From contig CAVSIB010000007.1 of assembly GCA_963727835.1 (NCBI GenBank), positions 4,429 through 68,428 of the forward strand: a DNA stretch of 64,000 nt, written 5' to 3'. The stretch is from an uncultured delta proteobacterium. Its GTDB lineage: Bacteria; Desulfobacterota; WTBG01; JAGOGO01. The stretch's first letter is position 1; each line of letters begins with the position of its first letter. The notes below the pieces were generated by a model. That model saw nothing but the letters and a program-made list of their open reading frames with translations, did not search any database and had not been told where the DNA came from. Below, one piece after another: positions 15,180 to 28,281 of the stretch. The position numbers were made by a program, and so were the translations under genes.

Positions 15180-17415
15180 ATGGACTCTTTACCCCTTCCA
15201 TCACAAAAATCTGATCAGAATAAACTGTGGGATATAAAAAAAGATGATCCTCACCAAGGCCTTCCTATTGTCCGCATCAACGACATCATTGAAAGTCTGC
15301 AATCCTACTATCCTCATGCTGATACTGCCCTGATTGAAAAAGCCTATATTTTTTCGGCCAAGGCCCATCAGGGACAGATTCGACTCTCTGGAGAGCCATA
15401 CCTTACCCACCCATTACACGTTGCTTACATTCTTACCAAAATGAAAATGGATGATCTCTGTGTTGTCACCGGAATTCTTCATGATACCATGGAAGACACC
15501 TCGACGAGCCTCGAAACAATCCAGGACGCTCTTCGGCCCTCATGTCGCTTCCCTTGTAGATGGATTAACAAAAATCAGTAAAATCAACTTTAGTAGTACC
15601 GAGGAACAACAAGCAGAAAATTTTCGCAAAATGATCCTGGCAATGGCCCAAGATATTCGCGTGATTCTTATCAAGCTCGCGGATCGCATCCACAATATGA
15701 GGACCTTAGAATTTTTATCTTCGGAAAAACAAAAAATCATCGCCCAGGAAACCCTTGATATTTATTCTTCCATCGCCAATCGTTTAGGAATTGATTGGAT
15801 CAAAACCGAACTCGAAGACTTGTCTCTTAAGTTTCTTCACCCCAAAGAGTTTCATTACCTCGACGAAATGATCAGGTCAAAAAAAGAGGAACGCAATCAG
15901 TATGTCCAAAAAGTAAAAAAAATAATTTCGGAGAAGCTGGAGCAGTTCAATATTCAGCCCGAGGTCGTTGGACGGTTAAAGCACTATTACAGTATTTACC
16001 AAAAGATGCTCCGTCAAAAAATCGATTTTGATCAAGTTTATGATCTTATCGCTTTTAGAATGATCGTTAATTCAATCAAGGATTGTTATGCCGCTCTCGG
16101 AATTATCCACTCACTGTGGACACCGGTGCCCGGACGGTTTAAGGATTTTATTGCGATGCCAAAGGCCAACATGTACCAATCCCTTCATACGACGGTGATT
16201 GGTCCTTATGGGGAAAGGATGGAAATTCAAATCAGAACCTTGGAGATGCATAAGATAGCCGAGGAAGGGATTGCTGCCCATTGGCGTTATAAAGAAAGTG
16301 GAAAAGAAATTGACAAACAATATAATCAGCTTTTTTCGTGGCTTCGCCAGATGTTAGAATGGCAGCAAGAGCTCAAAGACCCGGGAGAGTTTTTGGAAAC
16401 TTTTCGCATTGACCTTTTCCCTCAAGAGGTCTATGTATTTACACCCCGGGGAGAAGTAAAATCTTTCCCGAAGGGGGCGACCCCGATTGATTTTGCCTAT
16501 GCTATCCACACCAATGTTGGTCATCAATGCATAGGAGCCCGTGCTAACGGCCGGATGGTCCCTTTGGCGTATGAGTTGAGGAATGGTGACACTATTGAGA
16601 TCATTACCTCAAAAAATCAAAAGCCAAGTAAAGACTGGTTGAAAATCGTAAAAACTTCTCACGCCCGCACCAAGATACGACAGTGGGTACGGCTTACCGA
16701 ACGTGAAGATGACATTCAGGCAGGACGAGAAGCGTGTGAACGTGAGTTTAAACGGTATCACCTCAATTTCACCCATCTTTTGAAGTCAGGAAAAATTGGC
16801 AAGGTGATGGAGGATATTGGTTTCAATAATGTGCAGGACCTTTTGATTGCCATAGGGCTTGGAAAAATCCAAATCAGTCACATTATCCAAAAATTAATCC
16901 CGCCGGAAGAACTGGAGAAAAAACTAAAATTCCTTTCCAAAAAAGGCGAATCAAAACCAAAACCAGCTGACTCTTCAAGTGGAGTGCGCGTAAAAGGGAT
17001 TGACCACATTTTGGTAAATTTCGCAAAATGTTGTAGTCCGCTTCCGGGAGACAAAATTATCGGGTATATCACGAAAGGTCGGGGTGTAACGATTCACCTA
17101 GATGCGTGCCCTCGTCTCCTTGAAACAAGCAAGGAACGAAGAGTCGAGGTGGGTTGGGACCGTACTAAAGAATTGAGCCGTTCGGTAAAAATTAAAGTTT
17201 TATCACAGGATAAACCCGGCTTGCTTTCTGAACTTAGCGGGGCGATTACAAAACTTAAAAGCAATATCAAAAGGGCAAATGTCATGACGACCGGAACTCA
17301 GCAAGGTGTCAGCACTTTCGAGTTAGAAGTTAAAGACCTTGCACATCTGGAAAGCATTATCAATCATATCAAAAAAATTAAAGGGGTTATTGAAGTAAGC
17401 AGGATAAAGCTGTAA
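15180..17415 (+). CDS. relA: Bifunctional (p)ppGpp synthetase/hydrolase (frameshift near 15525)
   Basis: HQGQIRLSGEPYLTHP, ILHDTMED, IKLADRIHNMRTL, YQSLHTT, TGS (TPIDFAYAIHT) and ACT domains. Confidence 0.94.
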
Positions 17416-21705: not shown

Positions 21706-21722
21706 TTAATATTGCCTTAAAA

Positions 21723-21794
21723 GCGGGAATAACTCAGCGGTAGAGTGCAACCTTGCCAAGGTTGAGGTCGCGGGTTCAAATCCCGTTTCCCGCT
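21723..21794 (+). tRNA. tRNA-Gly(GCC)
   Basis: GCGGGAA acceptor pairs with TTCCCGC; anticodon arm CAACC-TTGCCAA-GGTTG; T-loop GTTCAAATC; CCA not encoded. Confidence 0.97.
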
Positions 21795-21800
21795 TTAAAA

Positions 21801-21873
21801 GGCGGCATAGCCAAGTGGCTAAGGCAGAGGTCTGCAAAACCTTTATTCCCCGGTTCGAATCCGGGTGCCGCCT
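21801..21873 (+). tRNA. tRNA-Cys(GCA)
   Basis: GGCGGCA/TGCCGCC acceptor, anticodon loop CTGCAAA, T-loop GTTCGAATC. Confidence 0.96.
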
Positions 21874-21885
21874 CTTGTAATTTCA

Positions 21886-22453: not shown

Positions 22454-22481
22454 GGAAGTTCAATTCTTCCCTGACCCGCCA
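22454..22481 (+). other. tRNA-like 3' fragment (T-arm, acceptor strand, CCA)
   Basis: GGAAG-TTCAATT-CTTCC-CTGACCC-G-CCA has canonical spacing; no matching 5' half. Confidence 0.55.
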
Positions 22482-23287
22482 TCGGTTTCCCGGGATGCTT
22501 CCTTTCCCTTGATTTTTTTAAATAACTCCCGAAGGATTTTTTTCCGCCAAAGCAATTCTTCTTTGGTGACATGATTCCGGCTGCGCCAAAGAGAAATTTT
22601 TTTGCTGTTCCGGTAAGGAGTATCGCGCAAAGGTGAGGTGGTGAAATTATTTTTCCATAAAACATAGGTAAAACTTAATTGGTCTCTTCGGGAATAGTTT
22701 TCAACCCACCACCACCAGTCCTCCATGATTTTGATGACTTCTTTATCATGATGTTCCCGGTAGATGATATTATTTTCAAAAAGGCCGTAGTTTTCAGGGA
22801 AGCCGTCCTTTCTTATCAAATCAATCTGCTCTTTCATGATTTCACGGTCATCTTTCTCAAACTTTAAACAGGCAATGAACTCATCATAAACACAATTTCT
22901 GCCGGGGTGGATTCCAAGAGAAATCTTTTTTGATTCCTTGATAGCGCGGTTAATATCGTCAAAAATTTTATCACTGAGGAAATTTATATTCGTGTCAACA
23001 TAAACGCTTCTTTCATAGTCGGGGAATAAGAGATGCGGGTGAAGTTTATGCCATCGGTTGTTGCGGACATCATCCATTGTGTCGAAAACCAGGGGCTTAA
23101 GGTTCCAGGTGGAATTGTTATTGTTTTTTATCGCTAGCTTGTCGGTAAAACAAACATAATCCCAATCCGGGTTGATAGCGGAGTGATTGTTCAACTGGTC
23201 ATAATTTCCGGTTAGGCAGGTATAGAGGACTACTTTTTTTTTAAGAGAAAGCATGATAAATTTCTCGATTATTTTTTTTAAAGCCAT
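22460..23287 (-). CDS. DUF616 (TOD1/MUCI70-like) glycosyltransferase, probably 3'-truncated
   Basis: VVLYTCLTGNYD, DYVCFTD, RWHKLHPHLLFPDYERSVYVD, HPGRNCVYDE, SRRDQLSFTYVLWK. Confidence 0.8.
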   Translation of the reverse strand: MALKKIIEKFIMLSLKKKVVLYTCLTGNYDQLNNHSAINPDWDYVCFTDKLAIKNNNNSTWNLKPLVFDTMDDVRNNRWHKLHPHLLFPDYERSVYVDTNINFLSDKIFDDINRAIKESKKISLGIHPGRNCVYDEFIACLKFEKDDREIMKEQIDLIRKDGFPENYGLFENNIIYREHHDKEVIKIMEDWWWWVENYSRRDQLSFTYVLWKNNFTTSPLRDTPYRNSKKISLWRSRNHVTKEELLWRKKILRELFKKIKGKEASRETDGGSGKN

Positions 23288-23408
23288 TATATCATAATAG
23301 AGTTTTTTTATTAAAATTTTATGATATAATTTTGTTATTTTAAGTAAAAAACTATAAAATAAAGGAGTCGGAAGGAATACGTCAAACTGTTGATGGAGAG
23401 ACCATTAT

Positions 23409-23837
23409 ATGTTGAGCAAAAAATATAGAATTAATGAATCGAAGGCCATCAGTGAAACTATTGACGGAGAGGCCATCATAGTCAATTTAGATACTGGTTT
23501 TTATTATAGTGCCAATAAAACTGCGACTATTATATGGAATGAAATTCAGGAGAATAATTCCATTAAAAATATATCTCACTTTTTTTTAAATCATTATGAA
23601 GTGGATGAAGACACCTTGGAAAAATATATGACCGAAATAATTAGCTTATTTTTGAAAGATGATCTTATTTTGAAATCAGAGCCGGATAGTTCTCCCGATA
23701 GTATAGGGAATCCAACGAATAGTATAAAGGAAACATTCATAATACCTAAAATTGAAAGATATGATGACATGGCAGGAGCTTTAATGTCCGATCCGGTTCA
23801 TGATGCCAATGAAGACGGTTGGCCAAATTTAAAATAA
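23409..23837 (+). CDS. PqqD/RRE-domain protein with a C-terminal peptide extension
   Basis: IDGEAIIVNLDTGFYYSANKTATIIWN..HYEVD..L..DDLI is the PqqD/RRE pattern; followed by a linker and tail FIIPKIERYDDMAGALMSDPVHDANEDGWPNLK. Confidence 0.85.
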   Translation: MLSKKYRINESKAISETIDGEAIIVNLDTGFYYSANKTATIIWNEIQENNSIKNISHFFLNHYEVDEDTLEKYMTEIISLFLKDDLILKSEPDSSPDSIGNPTNSIKETFIIPKIERYDDMAGALMSDPVHDANEDGWPNLK

Positions 23838-24011
23838 TAAAAATTATTTTAAATTATTGCTCCGGCAAATAAATATATAAAAGCATGATCGCCATTCTCA
23901 ATAACGACGGGCATTGCACAGAATTTTTTTACATGTTTAATTGCCGAAGTAATATATCATCATCTCCTATCTCGATCATTAAAAAAGAAATCTCATCTCC
24001 TACCTGAAAAT

Positions 24012-25106
24012 ATGAACAATTTTCCATCGCACATTGTTACCAATCAGCACCTTCGTATTACGAAAAAATACTTTAATGATGTCGTGGTGCCGATTATGAA
24101 TGATATTGCCAACTCAATTCCGCCCATTAAAAAGACCTATGCTATCGCCGGGAAAACTATTTGTCTGAATTTTTATAGCAAGATACTTTTTGAAAAAATG
24201 TCCCGGGCTTTTAGCCATATCGAAGAAGATGCAGTCAATTCTCCCGATTTGACGGTATGCATTTGGGATTCGGTATCTACCAACACCCATCTTGCTTCCC
24301 CATGGGTGAACCAGTCAGAATATACCTATCCACGAGAAGTAAATGCAAAAACGATAAATGTAGATTCTTTTTTGGGAATATACCTGCATGGTGAAGAAAC
24401 ATTAAATTTATATGATGAGAAGAATAATACGGCTTACTTTTGGACACACAATGCCGAATGTTTGCTGTATAGAATAAGTGGTTCACCACTAAGGTCAATA
24501 TTGAATTGGTTTCTCTCCAAAGAAGGAGTGCATTTAATGCATGGGGCAGCGGTAAGCACAAAGGGGAAATCGATATTGCTTTCCGCCAAGGGCGGATCAG
24601 GAAAATCAACCACCGCTTTATCATGTTTGTTTTCCGACATGGAATTTTTAGGAGATGATTATGTAACAATAAAGTCGGGTGATGTTATTACGACTCACAG
24701 TATTTTTAATTCGGTAAAAATATTTTCACTATCTCTGGATAAAACCTTTCCCGCGCTAAAAGAAAAAATATGGAATAAAAACGACGTTGCGTTGGAGAAG
24801 GAAAAAGCAATTGTTTTTTTGTCAGAATTATTTCCGCAACATATTATCAGGGAAGCACCGCTTCATGCCATCATGATTCCGGTGATTAAAGATATTAAAA
24901 AAACGAAGATTGTGCCCGCTCGTAAATTAGATACGATGATTGCCATGATGCCCGCCACGCTTTTCCAATTTTCTTTCATCCCATCAAATAAAATGGCTGA
25001 ATTAAGGTCAATTGTTGAGAGGACACCATGCTACTTTTTAGAGCTTGGCGGCGATATTCCCGGTGTGCCCGACGTAATTAAATCTTTTTTGTCCCATGAA
25101 GAATAA
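24012..25106 (+). CDS. HPr-kinase-related P-loop kinase
   Basis: LMHGAAV....SILLSAKGGSGKSTTAL....FLGDDYV: the HPrK-type His, Walker A and DD signature. Confidence 0.85.
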   Translation: MNNFPSHIVTNQHLRITKKYFNDVVVPIMNDIANSIPPIKKTYAIAGKTICLNFYSKILFEKMSRAFSHIEEDAVNSPDLTVCIWDSVSTNTHLASPWVNQSEYTYPREVNAKTINVDSFLGIYLHGEETLNLYDEKNNTAYFWTHNAECLLYRISGSPLRSILNWFLSKEGVHLMHGAAVSTKGKSILLSAKGGSGKSTTALSCLFSDMEFLGDDYVTIKSGDVITTHSIFNSVKIFSLSLDKTFPALKEKIWNKNDVALEKEKAIVFLSELFPQHIIREAPLHAIMIPVIKDIKKTKIVPARKLDTMIAMMPATLFQFSFIPSNKMAELRSIVERTPCYFLELGGDIPGVPDVIKSFLSHEE

Positions 25107-25785
25107 TCGTGTAAGTGTTTTAATGCCGGTCTTTAATGCTGAAAAATATGTTGAGGAGGCAACGAAAAGCGTCTTATCTCAAACCTATAAAAACATAGAA
25201 TTGATCTGTATCAACGATAACTCAACCGATAGTTCTTTGGCTCGATTAGAATCATTCGGAGATGAAATTATAGTTATTAATAATAAAGATAATTTTGGAA
25301 CTTCAGAATCAAGAAATAAAGGTATTCGTCGTGCGAAGGGGGAATTCTTAGCTTTTATTGATAATGATGATATCTGGGAAAAAAATAAATTGGAAGTTCA
25401 GATGAATCACTTTAATAATAATCCTAAGCTGGATATTTCATTTTCTTATATGAAATGTTTTTTAAGTCCGGAATTAAGCGAAGAGGTAAAGAACCTTCGC
25501 TATTGTCCGCCACGTCCTCTGCCCGGATATATTCCTTCAACGATGGTAGTGAAAAGGGCTTCCTTTGACCGGGTTGGTTATTTTGATGCGCGATGGAAAA
25601 ATGGAGAATCGGTTGACTGGTTGTTCAAGGCTAAAGAAGCTGGTTTAAATTTTGGGATCGTTGATGATGTTCTGGTTAAAAGAAGAATTCATGAAACCAA
25701 TAAGGGGGCTTTAGCATCATCGACGAATAAAAGTGAATATTTAAAAATAATCAGAGAATCATTAGCCCGAAGAAGAAAACAATGA
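25096..25785 (+). CDS. GT2 family glycosyltransferase
   Basis: VSVLMPVFNAEKY, INDNSTD, RNKGI, AFIDNDDIW, RRIHETN. Confidence 0.92.
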   Translation: MKNNRVSVLMPVFNAEKYVEEATKSVLSQTYKNIELICINDNSTDSSLARLESFGDEIIVINNKDNFGTSESRNKGIRRAKGEFLAFIDNDDIWEKNKLEVQMNHFNNNPKLDISFSYMKCFLSPELSEEVKNLRYCPPRPLPGYIPSTMVVKRASFDRVGYFDARWKNGESVDWLFKAKEAGLNFGIVDDVLVKRRIHETNKGALASSTNKSEYLKIIRESLARRRKQ

Positions 25786-25815
25786 ATAGCAGGCCGGTTA
25801 ACCTATTTAAAAATC

Positions 25816-26985
25816 ATGAGAGATTTTAAATATCCAAAAAGTTTTCCCAATAAAGAAGAAAATTTTTTCCTTCAGATGCTGCTTTCAAGCAAAAATGATT
25901 TTCCGAAATTATGGCAGCAATGGAAAGACCAGATTGTTTTTGATCGCCTGGATAAAGCCACCGCAAAATTAATTCCTTTTTTGTATTTGCGATTAAAGGA
26001 ATTGAACATCCCGGATGATGAGATCAAGAGGATAAAAGGAGTACACCAATTTACCTGGTATAAGAATCTGTTAGTTATCGATGCGGTGAGAAAGGTTATC
26101 TCTTTATTTAAGAAAGAAAACATTCCGGTCATTTTACTCAAAGGAGTGCCTTTATTAAAGAATGTCTATAAGAATACCGGAGCGCGGTCTATTGCCGATG
26201 TGGATATGCTTATCGATCAAAAACATGTCGAAAAAGCGACCGAGATAATGAAGGCCAATGACTGGGAATTTTTTGAGCAATCTCCTTTTGCTCTTAACCG
26301 GATTTCAGCGCCGCTGGCAAATAAATATATCAAAGAGATTGCTTTTATTAATAAGCAGGATGTCCGGATAGATATACACTGGCGCTTGTTCATGTATTTA
26401 TTCAAGGACAACAAAGAACATCCGATGTGCTATGAGGAGGTATTCAACCATTCCCTTGATTTCAAGCTGCACGGGGTCAGATGTAAAATCCCCTGCCATG
26501 AAGACATGATTATTCATATTATTGTTCATGGGGCGGAGCAGATTTTTCAAAGAACCTTGCGATGGGCGCTCGATGTGGCAAGTCTTATCAGAACGACGCC
26601 CATTGACTGGGAATTCTTGATCAAACGCATCAAGAAATTTGATGTGGCAATAGAGCTTAAGGTCGCTTTTTCTTATTTGTTAAAAAACTTCTCCCTTCCG
26701 ATTCCCGAATCGTTCATCAAAGCGCTTTCACAATTACCGATGGAAAAGAGTAAGAAGAAAGACTATTATCGAATGGCGAATAATACCGAGTTTTTACTCT
26801 GTGGGAAACTATGGTATTTATGGCGCGGTTATTGGCTCTATGAAAGAAAGGGTAATTTTTTTACCAGCTGGTATTATTTTATCGATTATACCTGCAAAAG
26901 CCTGGGAATTAACAGTAAACGGAGGCTTCCCGCTTTCATCATCGAGAAATATAAACCGAGAATAAGCGTTTTTTTTCATAAATAA
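25816..26985 (+). CDS. Nucleotidyltransferase family protein (NTP_transf_5-like)
   Basis: IPVILLKGVPL...Y...GARSIADVDMLI, IDIHWRL, IIHIIVHG, LRWALDV, IDWE. Confidence 0.85.
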   Translation: MRDFKYPKSFPNKEENFFLQMLLSSKNDFPKLWQQWKDQIVFDRLDKATAKLIPFLYLRLKELNIPDDEIKRIKGVHQFTWYKNLLVIDAVRKVISLFKKENIPVILLKGVPLLKNVYKNTGARSIADVDMLIDQKHVEKATEIMKANDWEFFEQSPFALNRISAPLANKYIKEIAFINKQDVRIDIHWRLFMYLFKDNKEHPMCYEEVFNHSLDFKLHGVRCKIPCHEDMIIHIIVHGAEQIFQRTLRWALDVASLIRTTPIDWEFLIKRIKKFDVAIELKVAFSYLLKNFSLPIPESFIKALSQLPMEKSKKKDYYRMANNTEFLLCGKLWYLWRGYWLYERKGNFFTSWYYFIDYTCKSLGINSKRRLPAFIIEKYKPRISVFFHK

Positions 26986-26990
26986 TAAAT

Positions 26991-27833
26991 ATGAAAATAA
27001 ATATCATCTCAACCGACAATCAATACCTTGCCTCGGATTATACCATCACCAATTTAGTTGATGGTAATGATATCTTTTTTAATACCCCGCAGGATATAAA
27101 TATTATCAACAAAAGCAAGACCGGGGACTATGTAGGATATAAAAAGAAAGATGATCGTATATATGGTTTAAGAATTGTTGATGATGTGGCTTACTGGTTC
27201 AATCGTTTTTATAAAAACGAAGCGATTTCATTTTTTGTGGTTTCTTCCTATGAATCTTATCTTTTATTAACCAACGAACTTGAATGCGAAAAACCGGTAT
27301 TATATTTGGAAGATGTGATAATGACGCCTCCCATATCCGATGATATTATCAAAAGTAACCGGATTTATACCTTTTTCAATCCGATTAATCTGGACGCCAG
27401 ATTATTGGAGATGGAAAACATTGATATTTACACCGCCGATTCCTATTTTATGGATGATGAAGTGATTAACTGCAATTTCCGCGGCAGAGCCAAAGGTAAA
27501 TTTTTTGAGTGGACTCCCGGTTGTGTCAGCGAATACGCTTGCTACCATACCGCTTATATTTATTATGACCGGAAGCACCCGGAGGCGTTAAATAAATTGA
27601 AATCAATCAACAGACTGTCTCAATGTTTTTATTTTAACCAGGAAGTGATAACCAATTATCCCGGCAGGTTCCATCCCGCCATGGAGAAAGAATTAAAGAG
27701 AGAAAAAAGCGACGATGAATTTTATCGAATATCCGGAAATACCAGAAGGATATTTGACCGGTTTTTATCACCGGAGGTTATTAAAAATAATTTGATTAAT
27801 TTTTGTAATAAATTAATGACAGTTAAGGAATGA
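26991..27833 (+). CDS. Hypothetical protein, last gene of the island operon
   Basis: 280-aa ORF starting 5 bp after the nucleotidyltransferase; no family recognised. Confidence 0.7.
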   Translation: MKINIISTDNQYLASDYTITNLVDGNDIFFNTPQDINIINKSKTGDYVGYKKKDDRIYGLRIVDDVAYWFNRFYKNEAISFFVVSSYESYLLLTNELECEKPVLYLEDVIMTPPISDDIIKSNRIYTFFNPINLDARLLEMENIDIYTADSYFMDDEVINCNFRGRAKGKFFEWTPGCVSEYACYHTAYIYYDRKHPEALNKLKSINRLSQCFYFNQEVITNYPGRFHPAMEKELKREKSDDEFYRISGNTRRIFDRFLSPEVIKNNLINFCNKLMTVKE

Positions 27834-28281
27834 GCCTATCAAAATTTTGACATAATTTTGAAAAAAAATAGGCCATTATTGAAAGGTAGTAAAGGCTTTC
27901 TGGGGAAGAATTTAAAGCATCAGCCCCTGCAACATTAGTCGTTACCCTTAGTTCTTTCTTTAATAGTTCCTTTAATTCATCAATTCGGGATACAATCAGG
28001 TCAAATGCACGGAGGCCATTTTTAAAAAACTGATTCCCCCACTCTATTTGTTGAAATGGTTCTTTTTTTATTTCTAAAGGGGATTCCCTTAACTTTTCCC
28101 TCTCATCTGGTTGCAGTCCTTTTGAGCGTGGAAAGAACTTCGGTAGCCATCTCAAATGTTGTTTCTCCATTCCATTTTTTATTTTTTCGATTTCTTCATC
28201 AGCTTCTGGCAAACGAACCTCAAATTTAACTTTCTCTGAACCACCAGGTTTTTTTATTAAACGTCTTCCTCGGCGATACAT
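27823..28281 (-). CDS. Hypothetical protein near attR, possibly a mobile-element remnant
   Basis: 152-aa ORF converging on the operon; no motif recognised. Confidence 0.4.
   Translation of the reverse strand: MYRRGRRLIKKPGGSEKVKFEVRLPEADEEIEKIKNGMEKQHLRWLPKFFPRSKGLQPDEREKLRESPLEIKKEPFQQIEWGNQFFKNGLRAFDLIVSRIDELKELLKKELRVTTNVAGADALNSSPESLYYLSIMAYFFSKLCQNFDRLIP

Follow-up and report, generated by a model that had tools for sequence, protein, structure and literature searches.

Discrete RREs are understood to bind a precursor that is encoded by a separate gene. Among the described systems closest to the locus studied here, the LPP clusters of Bacillota (lppA/B/K/S/D/N) combine an RRE with an HprK-like kinase, an NTP transferase and often an ABC exporter, in glycosyltransferase-rich loci without a cyclase; their precursor LppA is the product of a separate gene, with a [Y/F]xxPx[L/V] leader, a variable core phosphorylated on Ser3 and cleavage by a SpI peptidase (extracts of PMC13381572). 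The psm (PMC6993621) and bsf (PMC10368454) lasso clusters have a B1-type RRE cleft, an RRE-stimulated kinase with the motif found here and a PsmN-family transferase, BsfK modifying position 3 of the core (PMC10368454). HPr-rel-A and HprK-related kinase B (TIGR04352/04353/04355) also bring together a PqqD-like protein and an HprK-like kinase. Finally, surveys of RREs mention lasso-like RREs that no lasso enzymes accompany (PMC7470986) and PF05402 proteins that are oversized although they contain no second domain, the latter amounting to 21% (PMC12710340).

The window, i.e. the whole stretch of 64,000 nucleotides that was analysed, contains a cassette (Table 1) that, like the LPP clusters, unites an RRE, an HprK-like kinase and an NTP transferase, with no cyclase. 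In contrast to LPP, the RRE and a precursor-like tail form one chain, the core is near-invariant, Asp stands for Ser, no conserved peptidase is present and the system occurs in many phyla. A metagenome search with the tail alone gave 455 hits, of which the best 80 were analysed: 77 have an in-frame RRE upstream of the tail and three run off the contig, with no stand-alone tail peptide among these 80, the pattern used requiring the DP[IV]H form. No counterpart of the separate LPP precursor with its phospho-Ser3 was found in this sample. Compared with psm and bsf, the cassette has no macrolactam synthetase, no B2 peptidase (PF13471), no Thr/Ile(-2) and no Ser acceptor, and the precursor is fused. 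As for the TIGR families, the proteins of the window score far below the curated cut-offs (kinase 25.8-25.9 bits for a cut-off of 200), and TIGR04353 gives matches, with E 3.4e-6 at best, to 11 of the 114 members of the RRE-tail family. The RRE-tail system appears to work like an LPP or phospho-glyco-lasso module while being a member of neither. We found no description of the RRE-tail fusion or its motif in the openly accessible literature searched, and no match in the one PMC12710340 supplement searched; other RRE-survey and LPP data sets may list these proteins. What is new here is the agreement of the covariation with a solved leader complex, the link to the kinase with its complex model, the rule followed by tandem units and the narrowing of the acceptor to Asp128.

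Table 1. Positions, in the window, of the RRE-tail gene, its parts and the neighbouring genes.
Feature	Positions	Strand	Basis
RRE-tail protein, whole gene, 142 aa	23409..23837	+	ORF and translation, PF05402
Lasso-type RRE (PqqD fold), residues 4-90	23418..23678	+	PF05402, AlphaFold, fold searches; NF033536 below cut-off
Variable linker, residues 91-109	23679..23735	+	top-residue fraction 0.18; codon changes mainly replacement
Putative cis leader-like segment, residues 110-126	23736..23786	+	covariation with RRE, AlphaFold model, kinase interface
Core-like segment D-P-[IV]-H...G-W-P, residues 127-142	23787..23834	+	conservation; flexible in monomer model
Asp128-Pro129, candidate acceptor or phosphomimic site	23790..23795	+	80/80 and 43/43; missing from extra tandem units
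HprK-like P-loop kinase, His / Walker A / Asp-Asp motif intact	24012..25106	+	profile searches, co-occurrence, complex model
GT2 glycosyltransferase	25096..25785	+	PF00535 E 8.5e-34; family in 69/80 loci
PsmN-like nucleotidyltransferase with D-x-D motif	25816..26985	+	PF14907 E 6e-39; 60/80 loci
Unannotated 280-aa protein, lineage-specific accessory	26991..27833	+	no Pfam/NCBIfam match; equivalent position in L001, L002
Divergent TOD1/MUCI70 glycosyltransferase-like gene, lineage-specific accessory	22460..23287	-	PF04765 E 3e-12; equivalent position in L001, L002

A lasso-type RRE with a conserved C-terminal tail

The RRE-tail gene is the first of a same-strand run that continues with the kinase, the GT2, the PF14907 gene and the 280-aa protein; in its ORF (23409-23837), the F110 codon begins at 23736 and the stop codon occupies 23835-23837. 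Residues 21-86 match PF05402 (37.3 bits for a cut-off of 23.4, E 3.6e-9), and the three-strand, three-helix fold, of the lasso B1 type, is closest in a structure search to the lasso RRE TbiB1 (Z 13.3, rmsd 1.3, 84 aligned residues), followed by the B1 lasso RRE 6jx3 (Z 11.6, rmsd 1.7, 85 aligned). The translation and both matches bear out the preliminary description of this DNA, which had divided the protein into an RRE, a linker and a 33-residue C-terminal tail. The first part of the tail (residues 110-126) comprises an FxxPx[L/I] motif, a strand (115-118), the invariant D120 and a helix (121-126), and carries Leu where lasso leaders have Thr(-2). Altogether, 1090 clusters (50% identity) match the whole protein at E<=1e-10, a count that takes in plain RREs; close homologues are labelled Smithella or Deltaproteobacteria.

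GTDB genomes were scanned for relatives with patterns drawn from the RRE strands alone, and the best 80 of 104 were analysed, a set that favours tail-bearing members because the ranking used the whole protein. These 80 span Chloroflexota, Cyanobacteria, Actinomycetota, Acidobacteriota, Bacteroidota, Nitrospirota, Proteobacteria, Patescibacteria and others, in keeping with the similar tails on other PqqD-family proteins that the preliminary description mentions. Among them, the top residue reaches a mean fraction of 0.74 in the tail (residues 110-139), compared with 0.48 in the RRE and 0.18 in the linker. More specifically, D120, D128 and P129 are each present in 80/80, H131, W138 and P139 each in 79/80, GWP in 78/80 and the [Y/W/F]xxPx[L/I/V] leader motif in 72/80, while the lasso Thr(-2) position is occupied by Leu (71/80) or Ile (8/80). 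The spacing between P113 and D128 is identical in all 77 pattern-matching relatives, whereas the linker varies from 13 to 40 aa. Compared with three close relatives, the tail codons show 7-10 synonymous and 3-6 replacement changes, the linker codons 0-3 and 13-16, respectively, a pattern that shows, as far as codons tell, purifying selection on the tail and not on the linker. The alignments thus confirm that conservation of the tail far exceeds chance and that its 33 residues are more conserved than the RRE. Note that residue frequencies in the 333-homologue set used below for covariation are biased for GWP and DP[IV]H by the filter and do not serve as conservation counts.

A second sample, obtained by baiting with the kinase in four phylum samples of 401, 301, 251 and 201 genomes, gave 43 tails, found with a tail profile to which every tail-clade genome responded. 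Three types can be told apart: DP[IV]H...GWP; DPP..., which lacks His and GWP (7/43); and DPIH...GW, which is longer. A divergent subfamily formed by L229-L231, L173 and L257 carries Ala in place of Met121, lacks Pro113 and ends in a longer, acidic C-terminus; in two of its loci, L230 and L231, a degenerate RRE unit is attached to the C-terminus of the kinase.

As to its surroundings, the cassette directly follows tRNA-Gly and tRNA-Cys genes (21722-21874), the region 22460-28281 has a GC content of 31-40%, and the surroundings differ in L001 and L002. The cassette may be mobile. Short contigs from peat and wetland RNA libraries that cover it attest presence, not transcription. The look-alikes of the 280-aa protein (26991-27833) in the atlas are mainly phage proteins, and one set (atlas hit 13) has PF13524 in 36% of its members, a weak lead towards a glycosyltransferase-like family. 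Elsewhere in the window (15180-17415), a RelA/SpoT-like gene lies in two overlapping frames near 15451-15581, owing to a frameshift or an assembly error. The same genome holds a second RRE-tail copy (C29:19067-19500, L081), which is interrupted by a stop and more than one frameshift, has no kinase gene beside it and is flanked by lepA and a rimP/nusA-like run; the idea of a split RRE and tail on C29 was rejected, the sequence being a frameshifted copy of the RRE-tail gene.

Probable docking of the tail and pairing with the kinase

In two AlphaFold models, residues 115-118 form a strand and residues 121-126, approximately, a helix; pLDDT values are 89-92 for residues 111-120 and about 45-60 beyond 120, residues 127-142 being of low confidence in both. 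Mean-field covariation over 333 homologues (effective number 273) connects the tail to the RRE in 20 of the 45 top pairs, led by Y73-F110 (z 11.2) and D84-R117 (z 8.1) and including N36-E116, L80-I115 and F81-P113. In the crystal structure of LppB with its leader, Asp70 hydrogen-bonds leader Tyr(-16), and Phe74, Met78 and Leu83 line the pockets of the leader Pro and Val (extracts of PMC13381572); these four residues map to positions 73, 77, 81 and 86 here, residue 77 being Phe in 188/333. Most members have Phe and not Tyr at 110, and Asp73 is present in 25 of the 43 homologues with Tyr110 versus 7 of the 279 with Phe110, an apparent pairing that mirrors the LppB hydrogen bond. Residues 110-118 thus very probably occupy the lasso-type leader cleft, and FIIPKI, which the preliminary description had proposed to be a cis-encoded recognition sequence, finds support in the covariation, the Tyr110/Asp73 switch and the strand predicted with high pLDDT. 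Pairing of the predicted strand 115-118 with the last RRE strand is suggested by covariation. In computational terms, the leader motif would bind between the last RRE strand and helix 3, and the covariation is equally compatible with docking in cis and with swapped dimers.

A cleft filled in this manner could also belong to an autoinhibited RRE, as the preliminary description had envisaged, in which the tail would give up the cleft only to a precursor made from another gene; the prevalent Phe110 could then mean weaker binding. We regard this as very improbable: no conserved small ORF family emerged in the 80 loci (clustered ORFs of 60 aa or more), no lasso-like leader ORF was found near the window gene, and in the kinase-baited loci lasso-like peptides occur beside distant kinases with tail-less RREs, the few peptide-pattern matches beside tail-clade kinases not looking like precursors; moreover, conservation is highest in residues that do not belong to the cleft-binding part. 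Since no separate precursor gene was seen, conservation extends 20 residues past the cleft and kinase binding is predicted with the tail in place, a self-presenting fusion, the other half of the earlier proposal, fits better than simple autoinhibition.

The kinase is encoded in 71 of the 80 loci, GT2 in 69, PF14907 in 60 and an ABC ATPase in 33 (some contigs are cut). Four loci (L035, L042, L048 and L061) lack the kinase in the stretch examined, three of which end at contig edges, and it is found in all 36 tail-found loci that extend 3.5 kb downstream. In all five Chloroflexota with an unlinked RRE-tail gene (L003, L005, L009, L024 and L047), the kinase lies elsewhere in the genome, beside GT2 genes (E 1e-92 or better). 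In these five, the RRE-tail gene precedes ABC transporter and A-PCP(-acyltransferase) NRPS-like genes, and L003 and L005 have a Wzc-like gene upstream. Conversely, an RRE-tail protein is present in 41 of 41 genomes with a tail-clade kinase, four of which were search centres and related ones of which are not independent. In a FastTree, midpoint-rooted kinase tree of 96 rows (about one in three of the 113 aligned kinases kept), the tail-clade and the distant kinases form separate groups with a support of 96, which does not prove a single origin or the order of events; G1117 was left out of all counts and G128 placed with the distant kinases by the tree. The latter kinases adjoin tail-less RREs and, in several loci, separate peptides. 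These comparisons of gene content show a one-to-one link between the RRE-tail protein and one clade of HprK-like kinases.

The G128 cassette shows the split arrangement: it has the same enzyme trio and precursor leaders that align with the tail (K8, L/M12, D14, I/L15), but its RRE is discrete, a PF13471 peptidase accompanies the kinase and PF14907 genes, the three precursors, which carry Thr16 and Ser19/20, are free, and the kinase falls outside the fused clade. On G128:C17 (L186:5128-8708), the three precursors are in tandem, each a lasso-type leader followed by a core some 5-7 residues long, and a B12 radical SAM gene adjoins them on the same strand. It is a candidate for a cyclase-less RiPP pathway making very short linear phosphopeptides, the precursors being presumably modified.

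The kinase has the His, Walker A GxGKS and Asp-Asp elements of BsfK (extracts of PMC10368454): H177, G197, K198 and D215 are present in 144/144 and D216 in 142/144, the window kinase having Ala at the first Gly. A model of the RRE-tail-kinase complex with ATP and Mg scored 0.67, versus 0.02 for the best of three controls, on a scale whose mark 116 of 157 solved pairs reach, as do 2 of 215 mismatched ones; these counts are only rough given the alignments and ligands used. The runs agree in at least 63% of contacts, with partner pLDDT of at least 77. The predicted interface connects RRE sheet residues 10-34 and tail residues 118, 120-121, 124-125 and 138 with kinase helices 304-336 and P-loop residues 193-194; D128 is not among its confident contacts. 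The RRE sheet and tail residues 118-125 and 138 are thus predicted to contact the kinase, although the score may reflect a general RRE-enzyme likeness. Covariation between the two proteins (114 pairs, effective 98) is at noise level, V25-P314 alone fitting the predicted interface.

The candidate acceptor and the surrounding enzymes

The preliminary description had listed Ser, Asp and His as possible acceptors in the core-like segment. Ser127 is rejected, being present in 2/80 (usually Leu or Ala) and 1/43, with Ser/Ala swaps among 70%-identical relatives; so are Tyr118 (Phe in 17/80) and position 119 (Thr in 46, Ser in 17 and others in 17 of 80, Asp in the window). No Ser or Thr at all follows D120 in 25/80. 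The case for His is weakened, since His131 is found in 36 of the 43 kinase-baited tails: it is absent, together with GWP, from the DPP subfamily, whose kinases fall on the tail-clade side of the tree. Asp128-Pro129 is conserved in 43/43 across the three tail subfamilies, leaving Asp128, by alignment, as the sole surviving acceptor candidate. Counted from F110 as 1, Asp128 is position 19, and so is phospho-Ser3 in the LPP consensus YxxPxVLxHQxIxFETxxS, a register good to about one or two residues, LppA having a bulge (extracts of PMC13381572). Tandem proteins follow a related rule. Seven of them (P0044, P0054, P0055, P0102, P0119, P0126 and P0191) contain 2-3 RRE units each, with their own leader-like strands; nearly all of the 17 units are followed by an FxxP-like strand, and DP[IV]H occurs in one unit per protein. 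The extra units of P0054, P0102 and P0119 retain the helix and the Pro, with Asp replaced by Asn, Ala or Arg.

Searches for processing enzymes were negative. PF13471 has no match in the genome of the window (84% complete), and a two-sequence B2 profile, which does find B2 in three distant-kinase loci, has none in 160 loci. The window cassette encodes no peptidase, SpI-like or other, and none of the families clustered or scanned in the 80 loci is a recurrent peptidase; L053 has one Xaa-Pro peptidase, on the opposite strand. No macrolactam synthetase or cyclase appears among the clustered or scanned neighbours, PF00733 having only partial matches, on other contigs, in the genome of the window. 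In addition, the motif is internal in L006/P0072, which runs on into a GT2, and in P0191, a natural fusion of three RRE units and the kinase in which further RREs and the kinase follow. The tail looks unlike a released RiPP core because no leader peptidase was found, Leu replaces Thr(-2) and the motif is internal in these fusions; these points argue against release of the core, with which a general protease would remain compatible.

Two readings that invoke a peptide product have to be weighed here. According to the first, which we consider improbable, the fused precursor is modified on His131 or on a lineage-specific Ser/Thr, and the phospho- or glycopeptide is retained on the RRE, or cut by a general protease and exported. 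The near-invariance of His131 and GWP in the main subfamily and the ABC ATPases would agree with it, as would the phospho-hexose peptides made by the HprK-like kinase and PF14907 enzyme of pseudomycoidin (extracts of PMC6993621), but it conflicts with the DPP subfamily, the missing B2 peptidase, the internal motifs and the near-constancy of a core that is highly variable in LPP. According to the second, a small cofactor-like product would be cut from D-P-x-H...G-W-P. PqqA and MftA are hyperconserved precursors of such products, and the core of the RRE-tail protein is likewise near-invariant across phyla; however, the loci share no recurrent family of radical SAM enzymes, oxidases or peptidases, and the subfamilies diverge after D-P, making this reading a far-fetched one.

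Glycan enzymes make up the variable part of the neighbourhood (GT2, GT4, GT25, sulfo- and methyltransferases, epimerases), and kinase-GT2 fusions are common (e.g. L013, L027, L057 and L068). The RRE-tail module stands in front of a GT2 domain in L006:1473-2573 and, in a single sequence (P0192), behind a membrane GT87 domain (PF09594). In L013:8407-10093 and L027:8505-10096, two tandem DUF6817/HD-domain genes come right after the RRE-tail gene; their products are possible phosphohydrolases for release or reversal.

Possible roles of the RRE-tail protein

The reading that we tentatively favour, at a little under an even chance, is that of a self-loaded, uncleaved precursor that is phosphorylated, then glycosylated, on Asp128. 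The tail would fill the leader cleft of its own RRE, and the self-loaded RRE would dock on the adjoining kinase. The kinase would then phosphorylate Asp128, in place of the Ser3 acceptor of LPP/Bsf-type precursors, to give an acyl phosphate. On this phosphate, the PsmN-like transferase and the glycosyltransferases would assemble a sugar chain, with the tail remaining uncleaved; the identity of the glycan and its release from the protein are the most speculative part. Modification of Asp128 is a proposal drawn from sequence and model. An anionic oxygen acceptor is chemically plausible because LppK and PsmK already phosphorylate phosphate, putting several phosphates on one Ser (extracts of PMC13381572 and PMC6993621), which makes a carboxylate a conceivable acceptor by analogy. 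PsmN, for its part, adds +162 steps on the phosphate of the phospho-Ser of pseudomycoidin (extracts of PMC6993621). From a chemical point of view, Pro129, which has no backbone N-H, would prevent collapse of the acyl phosphate to an aspartimide.

Several points count against this modification of Asp128. D128 is missing from the confident contacts of the complex model, and the segment that holds it is of low confidence in both monomer models. Acyl phosphates are short-lived, which is awkward for the assembly of a glycan in several steps. We found no report, in the literature searched, of an HprK-like kinase phosphorylating Asp, and LppK rejected Thr and Tyr at position 3 (extracts of PMC13381572). 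PF14907 and the ABC ATPase are present in only part of the loci, some contigs being cut, and the invariance of Asp128 would suit a phosphomimic or catalytic role equally well.

The latter role is that of a permanent activating or scaffold subunit, a doubtful but serious alternative: the tail would never be modified, the self-loaded RRE would switch the kinase on and organise the enzymes, and Asp128 would mimic phospho-Ser or supply an active-site residue, the substrate of the kinase being a sugar, a glycolipid or another protein. The RRE greatly accelerates BsfK (extracts of PMC10368454), the confident part of the predicted interface is mainly the RRE sheet and helix 120-125, and the core has no conserved hydroxyl. 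The kinase-GT2 fusions and glycan-enzyme neighbours point the same way, as do the RRE units lacking D128 that are fused to kinases (L230, L231 and P0191). On the other hand, a scaffold leaves unexplained why each protein has one D-P unit while the extra units keep the docking helix and the Pro, and why a flexible segment lies at the register of the ancestral acceptor; moreover, no other candidate substrate is conserved in the loci.

A modified Asp128 could also serve a reusable carrier, which we deem unlikely: the kinase would form an aspartyl phosphate, the PsmN-like enzyme would cap it with a sugar, glycosyltransferases would extend the chain, and its transfer to an acceptor or its export would free Asp128. 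If true, this would be a soluble protein counterpart of undecaprenyl phosphate in dozens of bacterial lineages. Pearlin TglA, too, is a ribosomal peptide that acts as a regenerated scaffold and not as the product, but it is a free peptide, to whose C-terminus an amino acid is attached, with unrelated chemistry and enzymes, making this an analogy and not a kinship (extracts of PMC9016710).

A self-carried precursor, as in the reading favoured here, would account for many 'orphan' RRE-kinase-glycosyltransferase clusters in which searches for a precursor fail, and it narrows the question of the pathway to a single residue and two soluble proteins that lend themselves to testing. Phosphorylation of Asp128, if it occurs, would be a reaction new to HprK-like kinases and would open a way to the function of PF14907; with a tail that always stays unmodified, the protein would be a natural leader-fused, always-on RRE recruited to glycan synthesis. 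In the favoured reading, the tail would be a built-in, uncleaved anchor for sugar-building enzymes and not the source of a released peptide.
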